The translations under genes were made by a program, and so were the position numbers. Source: Chloroflexi bacterium HGW-Chloroflexi-1 (GTDB lineage Bacteria; Chloroflexota; Anaerolineae; CG2-30-64-16). Taken from it: 41,162 bases of DNA. The notes beneath the pieces are model-generated. The model was not told the DNA's origin, ran no database searches, and was given only the letters and a program-made list of their open reading frames with translations. Location of the stretch: NCBI GenBank assembly GCA_002842085.1, contig PHCA01000041.1, positions 1 through 41,162 of the forward strand, written 5' to 3'. The first letter of the stretch is position 1. Each line of letters begins with the position of its first letter. Positions 36,143 through 40,203 of the stretch are shown here, in pieces.

Positions 36143-37804
36143 TTACTCCCACTCGATCGTCGCGGGCGGCTTCGAGCTGATGTCGTAGACCACCCGGTTG
36201 ACCCCGGACACTTCGTCGACGATGCGATTGCTCACCTTTGCCAGCAGGTCGTAGGGCAGACGCGCCCAATCGGCGGTCATGAAATCGTCGGTGGTGACGG
36301 CGCGCAGGCCGATTGTGTCGGCATAGGTGCGGCCGTCCCCCATCACGCCAACAGAGCGCACCGGCAGCAGTACAGCGAACGCCTGAGACGTGGCCCGGTA
36401 CAGCCCGGCGGCCCGCAACTCCTCCAGGAAGATGGCATCGGCGGCGCGCAGCGTCTCCAGCCGCTCCCCCGTGACCTCGCCCAGGATGCGGATGGCCAGC
36501 CCCGGCCCGGGGAACGGGTGCCGCCAGACGATCTCCTCCGGCAAGCCCAGCGCGGCGCCCACGGCCCGCACCTCGTCCTTGAACAGATTGCGCAGCGGCT
36601 CGATGAGCTGGAAGGTCATGTCCTCAGGCAGTCCGCCGACGTTGTGATGCGTCTTGATCGTGCGCGCGGTGCCCTGTTCCGCGCGGCTGGCCGACTCGAT
36701 CACGTCGGGGTAGAGGGTGCCCTGGGCCAGGAAAGTGGCGTGTGTGCCGCAATTGCTGCGCAATTGCTTAGAAGCGCCGCTCTGTTCGCCCGCGATCAGG
36801 GCCTCGGTGATCTCGAACGTCCGCACGAACCGCGCTCCGATCCGCTTGCGCTTGACCTCCGGGTCGGTCACCCCGGCCAGGTCGGCCAGGAACTCCTCGC
36901 TGGCCTCCACCGTGATCAACTGCATGCCCATGTGCTGCTCGAAAGTCTCGACGACCTGCTCGGCCTCATCCTGGCGCAGCAGCCCATGGTCCACGAAGAT
37001 ACACGTGAGCCGGTCCCCCACCGCCCGGTGGATCAACGTCGCCGCGACCGCGGAATCCACCCCGCCGCTCAACCCGCAGACCACCGACCCGCCCCCGACC
37101 TGGGCGCGAATCTCCGCCACCGCCTCCGCGATGAAGTTGGCCGGCGTCCAATCCGGCGTGCAACCGCAGATATCTACCGCAAAATTGCGCAGGATGTCCC
37201 GGCCCTGCGGCGTGTGCTGGACCTCGGGGTGGAACTGCACGCCGTAGATGCCGACCGCCACGTTGCCCATGGCCGCGATGGTGGCTCTTGCGGGCATGGG
37301 GTACTGGGTATTGGGTATTGGGTATTGGGTATTGGAGACGGCCAGCGGAACGAAGGACGGCGGCAGGGCGGTCACGTGGTCGCCGTGGCTCATCCAGACG
37401 GCTAATGGCAGATTGCAGATTGCAGATTGCAGATTGGTAAAGAGCGGATTGGGAGCATCGGTCAAGGTGATTTCGGCAGGGCCGTATTCGCGACGGGCGG
37501 CGGGGTCAACGGCGCCGCCGAGGGCGCGGGCCAGCAGTTGCATGCCATAGCAAATACCTAATACCGGTTTCCCCGCGGCCAGGACGAACGGCGGCAGGGT
37601 CGGCGCACCCGGCTCGTAGACGCTGGCCGGGCCGCCGGAGAGGATATAGCCCTGCGGATCGAGGCCAGCGAACCGCTCCGCGGGCGCGTCCCACGGGATC
37701 AGCTCGCAGTAGACGTGCTGCTCGCGCAGCCGCCGTGCGATCAGTTGGCTGGTCTGCGAGCCGTAGTCGAGGATGGCGATGGTGTCGTGGGCTGCCTGGC
37801 TCAT
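36143..37804 (-). CDS. guaA: GMP synthase (glutamine-hydrolysing)
   Basis: [30 protein letters not shown] (GATase). LSGGVDSAV (PP-loop), [40 protein letters not shown] (C-terminal end). ATG 37804 overlaps the upstream stop (ATGA). Confidence 0.95.
37295..37336 (-). repeat. Heptamer array (AATACCC family, plus strand TATTGGG) x6 inside the guaA CDS
   Basis: Read directly. 42 nt, translating as [14 protein letters not shown], just upstream of the conserved YGVQFHPE block. Confidence 0.93.
37408..37435 (-). repeat. Heptamer array (plus strand GCAGATT) x4 inside the guaA CDS
   Basis: Read directly. Translates as NLQSAICNL, immediately before the conserved WMSHGD. Confidence 0.93.
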
Positions 37805-38139
37805 GGCGCCGCGTCTCCCGCGTCGAGCGTCTCTGCGCGCCATTCCGGCGCTTCCTCGCGCACGGCGACCCGTGCGGCTGTGGTCAGCGCGCGCAAAGGG
37901 TAATGGCGGAGCAGGTGAATGGAGTAGCCGGTTTTGACCAAAGTATCTATCTGCTTTTGCCCCATACTATCCACGGCATTTAGGATGGCGTCATCATCCC
38001 AGAAATCCTGGCTGGGCGCCATCATGCAGATGTCCGCAGATTGCCGGCCACCAGGATAGGCCTCCAGTTTCACACCGGGAAGCCGAGTCTGGAGGTCGCG
38101 CATGAACTCGTCAACCATCATCTGGAGTTTCTTGTTCAT
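37801..38139 (-). CDS. Small protein coupled to the HEPN gene; possibly a degenerate minimal-nucleotidyltransferase-like partner
   Basis: ATGA start/stop overlaps at both ends (38136-38139 and 37801-37804). Lower GC than its surroundings. [20 protein letters not shown] loosely parallels the GS..G....SDIDLLV motif of MNT proteins, but the second Asp is missing. Confidence 0.45.
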
Positions 38140-38528
38140 CGTAGCTGCACCTCAACAGCGGACACCAAAACCCTGGTCTTCTGAAGGGCATGCTGCGCCA
38201 CCTTGCGACTGGTGGCAGACACGGTGTAATCAGCGATTCTTCGGATGTCGAAGATTTGTGGGAGTAGCGGCGCCAGATCGGCCGGATACAATTTCCGCCG
38301 ATGAACCAGCACGCCGGAAAAGCGCGCCTGGACGAAGTCGTGCTCCCATTGGCCCCGTCCGCCTGCCGGTCGGACACTCGCGGCGATCAGCGCGACAACC
38401 GCGGCCTGGAACATGGCGTAGTAGCAACGGTTGGCGCAGTTGTTGTAGCGCCCGTCGGTAAACTCGCTCTCGGCGCCGGTCAGGCTCTCGGTCGCTTCGA
38501 TCAGATAGGCCAGGCAATCAGCATCCAT
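38136..38528 (-). CDS. HEPN-domain protein
   Basis: ATG 38528 with GGAG about 10 nt upstream. GRYNNCANRCYYAMFQAAVVALIA ... IFDIRRIADY matches the HEPN (PF05168-type) helix pattern as I know it. Confidence 0.78.
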   Translation of the reverse strand: MDADCLAYLIEATESLTGAESEFTDGRYNNCANRCYYAMFQAAVVALIAASVRPAGGRGQWEHDFVQARFSGVLVHRRKLYPADLAPLLPQIFDIRRIADYTVSATSRKVAQHALQKTRVLVSAVEVQLR

Positions 38529-38550
38529 GGTAGACACTCCGCCGGAGGCG

Positions 38551-39120
38551 TTACTCCAGCACGATCTGCCCATTGTCCATGCTGGTGATAACCGCGAGGG
38601 TCTCGATGGGCACGCCGAGATCGGTGAGGGCGGCGCGGCCCCCTTCGAAGCGTTTCTCGATCACCGCGCCGATGGCGACCAGCGTGGCGCCCGATTTCTG
38701 CACCAGGTCCACCAGCGCGCGAATCGTCTCGCCGCGGGCCAGGAAGTCATCGATCACCAGGACGTGGTCACGCGGGCCGAGAAATTCCGGCGAGATCATC
38801 AACTCGGTCATCACGCCCTTGGTGTGCGATGGCGCATGGGCGATCATCGTGTTGGGGTGCATGGTGACGGGCCTGGTCTTGCGGGCGTAGACGACGGGCA
38901 AGCCGAGCGCCAGGGCGGTGGTCAGCGCGGGCGCAATACCGCTGATCTCGGCGGTGACGATCTTGTTCGCGCCCAGGTGGGCGAAGCGCGCGGCCAGCGC
39001 GCCGCCCACAGCCAGCATCAAGGCCGGGTCGACCTGGTGGTTGATGAAGCTGTCCACCTTCAGGATGCCATGCCCCATGTTGACGCCTTCGCGCATGATG
39101 CGTTCCTTGAGAAGTTCCAT
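38551..39120 (-). CDS. xpt: Xanthine phosphoribosyltransferase
   Basis: MELLKERIMREG...ILKVDSFINHQVDP...TAEISGIAPAL...VLVIDDFLARGET...AIGAVIEKRFEGGR is full-length similar to Xpt. The ATG directly abuts the stop of the upstream GT2 gene. Confidence 0.93.
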   Translation of the reverse strand: MELLKERIMREGVNMGHGILKVDSFINHQVDPALMLAVGGALAARFAHLGANKIVTAEISGIAPALTTALALGLPVVYARKTRPVTMHPNTMIAHAPSHTKGVMTELMISPEFLGPRDHVLVIDDFLARGETIRALVDLVQKSGATLVAIGAVIEKRFEGGRAALTDLGVPIETLAVITSMDNGQIVLE

Positions 39121-40203
39121 TCAAGACACCCCTCTCGTCTTCGACATTTGCCAATGCACCTCGGGATCCCGCCAATGTCGCAGCCGCCAGACCCACCCGG
39201 CCGGGTAGCCGACCATCTTCGCCACGTCGCCCACCGCGCGGATGGCCGGGATCAGCGCAATGGCCCGGAGCTGGTCGACGGGGGCGAGATTGAGCAGGTG
39301 GGCGTGCAGCCGGCGGAAGGGGGTGCGGCAGTAGACGACGGCGCCGCCGGCCAATCCCAGCAACCATAGCGGGCTGTGGGCGATGCTCAAGATCAACACG
39401 GCAGGCAGGGCAACGAGATACGTGGCATAACGGATGGCGTGGCGCTTCCGCCAGAGGTCGGCCTTGCCATCGCCACGGGCGTAGCGGTAGTATTGCTTGA
39501 AGTAAGCGCGCATGGAGCCCCGCGGCCGGAAATGGGCCACCGCGCCCGGCGCCCACACGAAAGGCCCGGTCGCGTCTTGCAACCGGAAGTCAAAGATCAG
39601 GTCCTCGCAGTAGTCCAGCCACTCCGGGTAGCCACCCGCGGCCGCCCACGCCTCCTTGCGAAACGCCACCGACCGGCTGGATGGCAGGAAGGCGCCTGGA
39701 TCGACGTCACCGATCGCTGGCAACACCGTCGCGCCCATCGCAGCCTCGAACGGGGTCTGCGGGTCGGGGACGAAGAAGCCGGCGACGGATTGGGGATTGG
39801 GGATTGCGGATTGCGGATTGCGGATTGCGGATTTGCGATTTGCCGATTGGTCGATTTGCTGATTCGCTGATTCGCTGATTTGCCCGCTTTCCAACGGCGC
39901 GACCAACGCAGCGAGCCAGGCTGGCTCCAACCACACCCCCGCGTCGGTGGATGCGATCACGTCGCCGGTGGCAGTCCGGATGGCCACGTTGCGGCCGCGG
40001 GAGATGTTGGCGCCTGGTTCGATCAACACGCGCAGCTTCAGCCGGTCCGCGTACGATTCGATCACCGCGACGGTGTTATCGCGCGAGCCGCCGTCCACGA
40101 TCACGACCTCGTCGGGTTGCCGGGTTTGAGCCACCAGGCTGTCCAGCATCCGGCGGATCGATTCCCCTTCGTTGAGCACGGTACAAATGACGCTGACGCG
40201 CAA
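39121..40203 (-). CDS. Family 2 glycosyltransferase with C-terminal TM segments
   Basis: TTG start with GGAG upstream. VSVICTVLNEGESIRRMLDSLVAQT....EVVIVDGGSRDNT...ISRGRNVAI......IASTDAG (GT2 DxD-type core). Confidence 0.85.
   Translation of the reverse strand: MRVSVICTVLNEGESIRRMLDSLVAQTRQPDEVVIVDGGSRDNTVAVIESYADRLKLRVLIEPGANISRGRNVAIRTATGDVIASTDAGVWLEPAWLAALVAPLESGQISESANQQIDQSANRKSAIRNPQSAIPNPQSVAGFFVPDPQTPFEAAMGATVLPAIGDVDPGAFLPSSRSVAFRKEAWAAAGGYPEWLDYCEDLIFDFRLQDATGPFVWAPGAVAHFRPRGSMRAYFKQYYRYARGDGKADLWRKRHAIRYATYLVALPAVLILSIAHSPLWLLGLAGGAVVYCRTPFRRLHAHLLNLAPVDQLRAIALIPAIRAVGDVAKMVGYPAGWVWRLRHWRDPEVHWQMSKTRGVS
39787..39884 (-). repeat. Degenerating 7-8 nt array (plus strand GGATTGG/GGATTGC/GATTTGC/GATTCGCT) inside the GT2 CDS
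   Basis: Read directly. Translates as SGQISESANQQIDQSANRKSAIRNPQSAIPNPQS between GT2 core segments. Confidence 0.9.

Follow-up and report, generated by a model that had tools for sequence, protein, structure and literature searches.

Pairs of a class II HEPN protein and a minimal nucleotidyltransferase (MNT) are among the most abundant predicted toxin–antitoxin (TA) and candidate defence modules, and are barely characterized. The canonical pair (PF05168 with PF01909; structures 2hsb and, for the complex, 9xbd) corresponds to the PADLOC candidate system PDC-M05, the antiviral role of which is unconfirmed (PMC12988326). HEPN proteins of class II lack the RX4H motif and keep the Tyr (Yao et al., PMC7641770); for the AF0298-type, which retains the Arg of Rx4-6H, has lost the His of the motif and carries a second conserved His upstream, an alternative active site has been proposed (Anantharaman et al., PMC3710099). 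Here we describe a relative of these pairs in a window of 41,162 nt, the whole stretch of DNA analysed (contig PHCA01000041.1, assembly GCA_002842085.1; source genome G000), in which a segment of about 730 bp between xpt and guaA encodes a HEPN protein and an acidic partner of 112 residues. We propose that this segment is probably a two-gene, TA-like and possibly anti-phage module inserted in the xpt–guaA junction, the MNT-like partner of which would neutralize the HEPN protein by binding it.

With the class II modules, the locus has in common the HEPN family and its motif (R-x2-[AS]-D-Y and a His upstream of it), the organization as an operon of two genes overlapping by 4 nt, of which the HEPN-first order also occurs on contig C308 of the source genome, and a patchy, multi-copy distribution. 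It differs from them in the partner, which has no PF01909 or PDC-M05A signal, lacks GSX10DXD and is around ten residues shorter in the catalytic loop. The type VII HepT/MntA systems (Shewanella SO_3166/SO_3165, Aphanizomenon and Legionella; PF01934/PF08780 with PF01909) are alike in placing a HEPN RNase toxin beside a small α/β antidote and in the conserved Tyr beside the active-site Arg, and MntA is the best TA-related fold match of the window partner. However, the window HEPN is from a different clade and has no RX4HXY, the two genes stand in the opposite order, and AMPylation by the window partner would be implausible given its missing catalytic residues, although Tyr101 is still invariant. 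The toxin-first type II TA systems (higBA, hicAB and mqsRA) offer a third comparison: there too the toxin gene comes first and is coupled to that of an acidic antitoxin, in a small mobile module among housekeeping genes, whereas the toxin fold is different and the window partner has no detectable helix-turn-helix (HTH) or ribbon-helix-helix (RHH) domain.

The HEPN–partner pair and its distribution

The first gene of the pair (38136..38528, minus strand) encodes a HEPN protein of 130 residues, of class II or HEPN-T (AF0298, UPF0332-type), that would act as an RNase toxin. Its start at 38528 fits the N terminus conserved in the family (MDADSLAYL), which a longer open reading frame (ORF) from 38573 does not. 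The second gene (37801..38139, minus strand) encodes the partner, probably an MNT-derived and catalytically dead antitoxin. The HEPN stop overlaps the partner ATG in an ATGA (38139–38136), and a Shine–Dalgarno (SD) sequence for the partner (GAGG, 38153–38150) lies within the 3′ end of the HEPN gene; through this overlap and the conserved SD, translation of the partner would be coupled to that of HEPN.

This arrangement is retained throughout the narrow family, in which all 17 complete loci from relatives and metagenomes carry HEPN and partner with the 4-nt overlap, together with a conserved GGAG-type SD for the partner inside the HEPN 3′ end. The ratio of non-synonymous to synonymous substitution (dN/dS) is 0.13–0.22 for HEPN and 0.13–0.23 for the partner, and the latter values, with an overlap kept in every locus examined, indicate that the 112-residue ORF is a real gene under purifying selection. 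The original prediction, which was made from the letters of the window alone, had paired the two ORFs as a coupled unit and had allowed that the smaller one might turn out not to be conserved; it is conserved, and the pair is kept in all loci examined.

The narrow subfamily is present in 7 of 41 relatives and the wider HEPN subfamily in 18 of 401 genomes of the phylum, often in several copies. Among the Chloroflexota loci of the wider subfamily, a partner ORF begins between −22 and +11 nt from the HEPN stop in every case (29/29), with the exact 4-nt overlap in 19. The same was found in all three contigs of HEPN relatives inspected, and at all these loci the partner has 73–124 residues and no Pfam match. 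From the partner side, look-ups found a PF05168 gene directly upstream in three of three. The copies occupy unrelated loci: downstream of psuG, where the pair faces the gene of a ClpB-type ATPase, between mutS and tex, before nuoEF, and at PMT_2 and MFS loci. The source genome itself has three, namely that of the window, one on C371 (the psuG/clpB-like site) and a diverged copy on C401, in which HEPN has a TAA stop and the partner is intact. More broadly, in-frame stops are found in 5 of 30 HEPN copies, and all five adjacent partners are open. The two products also contrast in charge, HEPN being basic (median isoelectric point (pI) of 9.2 in the family and 8.5 in the window copy) and the partner acidic (pI 5.2 in the narrow and 4.7 in the broad family). 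The pair has the generic traits of type II TA systems, that is, a compact two-gene operon, a patchy and multi-copy distribution in varied contexts, and an acidic partner with a basic HEPN.

At one metagenomic locus (L055:548-3524, contig Ga0100396_1003540), psuG is followed by a tandem of two diverged HEPN–partner modules, and behind each module the final 50–70 or so codons of psuG (PF04227 positions 229–291) are repeated; a HicAB pair lies just upstream. One such psuG 3′ fragment is found at a further locus too (L048, in G001). The arrangement at L055 resembles the product of repeated integration, or of unequal recombination, with the psuG 3′ end as the anchor.

The 112-residue protein has no match in Pfam, NCBIfam, PADLOC or PDB sequences. 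A word-based homologue search returned two clusters, and a profile search with the 112-residue family that went through all of 1.84 billion representatives returned only 11, in contrast to more than 2,600 relatives of the HEPN protein. The wider family was reached only by way of the HEPN homologues, the downstream genes of which were read off. These downstream partners are homologous to the window protein (hhalign probability 97%, E = 4 × 10−11), and a profile search with the broad family yields at least 206 clusters at 90% identity, all labelled hypothetical. The protein is not an orphan but a member of a broad family of acidic proteins, as yet without a name, that are always encoded just 3′ of this HEPN subfamily and for which there is no Pfam, NCBIfam or PADLOC model. 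DinI-like matches of two distant family members (E of 0.02–0.04) were weak and were judged to be due to chance.

Fold and ancestry of the partner

The AlphaFold (AF2) model of the partner, with a per-residue confidence (pLDDT) above 90 for residues 1–80, consists of a helix, a two-strand hairpin, a helix and a strand (an α-β-β-α-β core), followed by a disordered tail. Foldseek detected no PDB fold at E < 0.005. The top matches were to ribosomal protein uS3, and MntA (5yep_A) ranked fourth to fifth of 350,542 PDB chains (E = 0.023, TM score of 0.42). The chains 5yep_A, 7aer_A, 6m6v_A and 6m6w_A are one protein by an identity check, the HEPN antidote MntA of Shewanella, and no other small non-ribosomal protein turns up repeatedly among the leading fold matches of the partner. 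An RNA-binding fold of the KH or uS3-like type was considered for the partner and rejected as unsupported (E ≥ 0.005, TM ≤ 0.46, with the second helix and the GXXG loop missing).

Aligned by hhalign to class II MNT, the partner is colinear over about 95 columns, in the same register in four profile versions, and the P value falls from 0.015 to 0.003 to 4.5 × 10−4 as the partner profile deepens; between 0 and 2 of 150 shuffled MNT profiles reached the first hhalign score. In this register the GS loop and the helix that follows it are deleted in the partner, and the DxD positions read D-I-C in the window copy and Y/G-I-Y across the family. Even with E values as high as 1 allowed, PF01909, Polbeta and PDC-M05A gave no match for the partner; a true MNT of the source genome scores 36 bits to PF01909 and also matches PDC-M05A. 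The loose likeness to MNT that the original prediction had seen recurs here, as its register (SADICMM against SDIDLLV) was also found by hhalign, and the partner, lacking the catalytic residues, is at best a degenerate MNT. The accompanying claim that one catalytic Asp has been lost is right for the window copy, which keeps the first Asp and has Cys at the second, and falls short for the family, which usually has Tyr or Gly at both positions and no GS. Judging from these residues, the partner is predicted to be incapable of nucleotidyl transfer.

The position of the partner gene downstream of HEPN, at first seen as a departure from the usual order, is not anomalous: HEPN followed by MNT with a 4-nt overlap is found in G034 and G030, genomes of the same class, and on C308 of the source genome, which carries a canonical class II module. 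On the order and overlap seen at C308, the partner occupies the slot of an MNT. The source genome is rich in modules of the MNT/HEPN type, with 12 MNT matches and both gene orders, HEPN then MNT on C308 and a truncated MNT-like ORF then HEPN on C407.

Three results speak against an MNT ancestry. In the predicted topology of the partner, a β-hairpin takes the place of an MNT helix; in Foldseek, uS3 and KH-like folds score at least as well as MntA; and the hhalign probability of partner against MNT, at 3–33%, is below accepted homology thresholds. As an alternative, the segment could be a TA or defence module with a partner that is not MNT-derived, an unrelated small acidic antitoxin of generic two-layer α/β fold that displaced the MNT beside class II HEPN genes. 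Such an origin would fit these hhalign probabilities, the best Foldseek matches, uS3 N-terminal or KH-like domains, all at E > 0.005, the α-β-β-α-β topology with no helix after strand 1, and a partner that gives no signal with PF01909 or with PDC-M05A of PADLOC even at E = 1. It sits less easily with a colinear register that is the same in four profile versions and gains significance with depth, with MntA as the sole small non-ribosomal protein recurrent near the top of the fold matches, and with a gene slot, size and overlap identical to those of the true MNT of the same genome; we regard it as rather unlikely. Descent of the partner from MNT is likely, although not proven. The further step, that the family as a whole consists of pseudo-enzymes, former MNTs that have given up catalysis and counter class II HEPN toxins by binding alone, we put forward tentatively, as plausible but short of probable.

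The HEPN protein and its proposed neutralization

The HEPN protein matches PF05168 at 30.6 bits (gathering cut-off of 22) over residues 10–126. Searched with the family profile, 2hsb (AF0298/UPF0332) is the best solved relative, at 6.8 × 10−8, and 9xbd_A follows at 5.6 × 10−4. The active-site pattern is a variant, R-x4-(D)Y with an upstream His, the key residues of which (R96-x2-A99-D100-Y101 and H63) are invariant across 12 family members, and H63 aligns with the His of 9xbd_A. The motif reads R-R-I-A-D-Y, and RX4HXY is absent, with no His at position +5. The protein matches both the published description of the AF0298-type (PMC3710099) and the definition of class II (PMC7641770), and PADLOC assigns it a weak match to PDC-M05B. 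On this basis we predict that it is an RNase toxin.

We consider it improbable that the roles are reversed or that there is no toxin, with HEPN as an inactive subunit for substrate binding or regulation, like that of fused nucleotidyltransferase–HEPN enzymes, and the pair as a harmless two-subunit protein. The lack of a canonical Rx4H in class II HEPNs (PMC7641770) and a PF05168 score of just 30.6 bits would be in keeping with an inactive subunit; but the invariance of R96, D100, Y101 and H63 is what the alternative active site put forward for the AF0298-type (PMC3710099) would lead one to expect, stop codons build up in HEPN and not in the partner, and the distribution is patchy and multi-copy.

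From the anatomy of the pair, the charges of its products, its distribution and the one-sided decay of HEPN copies, we infer instead that a toxin-first, TA-like module is most likely. In this proposal, the first gene would provide a class II RNase toxin and the second a descendant of MNT from which the GS loop and the DxD pair have been lost. Because the partner lacks both, it would probably neutralize HEPN by 1:1 binding, in the manner of type II systems, and AMPylation as in type VII would be unlikely. A role in defence through abortive infection is compatible with such a module. Some considerations weigh on the other side. Toxicity in class II HEPN/MNT pairs is poorly documented, there being no biochemical study as of 2020 (PMC7641770), and in-frame stops in metagenome-assembled genomes (MAGs) may be assembly errors. 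Furthermore, the partner has no recognizable DNA-binding domain, with no match to HTH, RHH or AbrB and a model that shows a single α/β domain with a disordered tail, which leaves no sign of autoregulation of the classical type II kind.

Insertion at the xpt–guaA junction

Across 36143–40203 of the minus strand, the order is GT2, xpt, a 22-nt spacer, HEPN, the 112-residue ORF and guaA. We searched for xpt in 40 relatives and read off the gene that follows it. In all 21 same-family genomes with the locus, xpt and guaA are neighbours, and in 20 of these xpt runs straight into guaA; the HEPN pair stands between them only in G012, a Lake Tanganyika Chloroflexi MAG of a sister genus (VGOD01000110). 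Several cassette-free junctions have an ATGA overlap (L021, L032 and L036) or TAAGATG (L018), which indicates that the junction was translationally coupled before the cassette arrived. With xpt and guaA adjacent in 20 of 21 relatives and the cassette confined to G000 and G012, the cassette was inserted between two ancestrally adjacent genes, at a junction that was coupled beforehand; the synteny of relatives here bears out what the original prediction had read from gene order. At its other end, the stop of the 112-residue ORF overlaps the guaA ATG (ATGA, 37804–37801), such that the 3′ end of the cassette would have recreated the stop/start overlap with guaA.

In a guaA tree, G012 groups with G000 and G010 (support of 98/96), and G010, the nearest relative, has no cassette between xpt and guaA, which leaves two histories, a single insertion that was later lost cleanly or two insertions. 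In favour of a single event, guaA of both G000 and G012 is extended by four codons at the N terminus (MSQAAHD and MAGATHD, compared with MHD). A recent co-transfer of cassette and flanks between G000 and G012 was rejected, as the similarity of their xpt and guaA is no higher than that to G010. We found no direct or inverted repeats flanking the cassette and no duplicated xpt or guaA ends, and phage and plasmid collections gave no match for HEPN or for the partner.

In composition, the cassette differs somewhat from its neighbours, with a GC content of 59.3% in the 112-residue ORF and 61.1% in HEPN compared with 65–67%, and a third-position GC (GC3) of 70–72% compared with 82–88%. The lower GC reported at the outset is real and modest, the figure of 47–57% being valid for local 60-nt samples only; about 9% of 340-nt windows have lower GC.

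The flanking genes are those named originally, as is HEPN by its PF05168 match. GT2, a glycosyltransferase gene (39121..40203, minus strand; PF00535, 82.9 bits), is the first of a conserved GT2–xpt–guaA array and precedes xpt in most of the same-family relatives too. It is followed on the same strand by xpt, for xanthine phosphoribosyltransferase (38551..39120; TIGR01744 equivalog, 234.8 bits against a cut-off of 164), which is 87–94% identical to that of family relatives, and beyond the cassette by guaA, for GMP synthase (36143..37804; NF000848, 750 bits against a cut-off of 400). The spacings were likewise read correctly: the GT2 stop (39123–39121) directly abuts the xpt ATG (39120) at 0 nt, the 22-nt spacer (38529..38550, minus strand) holds a GGAG (38540–38537) 8 nt before the HEPN ATG (38528), and both ATGA overlaps are present.

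This spacer leaves no space for a promoter outside xpt, and a promoter/terminator scan found no match to a sigma-70-like promoter or to a terminator on the coding strand of the cassette; with only 22 nt upstream and no such match, the module would presumably be read from the GT2–xpt–guaA transcript. An SD-like GGGAG (37819–37815) is located 10 nt ahead of the guaA ATG, inside the 112-residue ORF, and because of it the coupling of guaA to this ORF may help but need not be obligatory. The purine setting, to which the original prediction had given weight, appears to be incidental, since other copies sit at unrelated loci. A domesticated regulator, in which HEPN or the partner tunes the mRNA or translation of xpt and guaA and guaA requires translation through the cassette, is very improbable: its location between two purine genes with stop/start overlaps, the same placement in a second genus (G012) and the lack of an internal promoter or terminator match speak for it, and against it stand close paralogues at psuG/clpB-like, mutS/tex, nuoEF, PMT_2 and MFS loci, 20 of 21 family relatives (the nearest, G010, included) without the cassette there, the SD-like GGGAG that guaA has of its own, and xpt–guaA coupling that occurs without any cassette.

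The junction shows other peculiarities among the relatives. In L030 (G008:C55), a gap of about 241 nt between xpt and guaA holds a different ORF of 71 residues (MSNRRQTKLVHEGEYVAEVEVE...) with no Pfam match, which suggests that small genes have landed at this junction repeatedly. The xpt–guaA spacers of L019, L020, L022, L024, L026 and L029 are full of 7–15-nt tandem repeats (for example, TACGCAG, GATAGAC and GATGTAGTGCATCAC), of the same repeat class as heptamer arrays in guaA and GT2 of the window. Those inside guaA are in frame, (GGGTATT)n at 37292–37326 and (CAGATTG)n at 37395–37429 (families D6 and D9). The C terminus of GT2 (39121–39150) extends around eight codons beyond the point at which the alignment of the relatives’ GT2 ends, stopping exactly at the xpt ATG, and the GT2–xpt gap is 40–190 nt or more in relatives compared with 0 nt in the window.

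As a widespread sister architecture in which a dead and probably related protein takes the place of the nucleotidyltransferase, these modules provide a natural experiment on neutralization by binding alone, and they bear on the role of the conserved Tyr when nothing can AMPylate HEPN. With no models for the partner family, they are at present invisible to TA and defence annotation. The insertion in the operon illustrates how a promoterless module can persist, re-forming a translationally coupled junction of essential genes. If the partner family is indeed a pseudo-enzyme, it would represent a natural transition from enzymatic (type VII-like) to stoichiometric (type II-like) neutralization, and the window would hold a member of this family that relies on an essential purine operon for its transcription.

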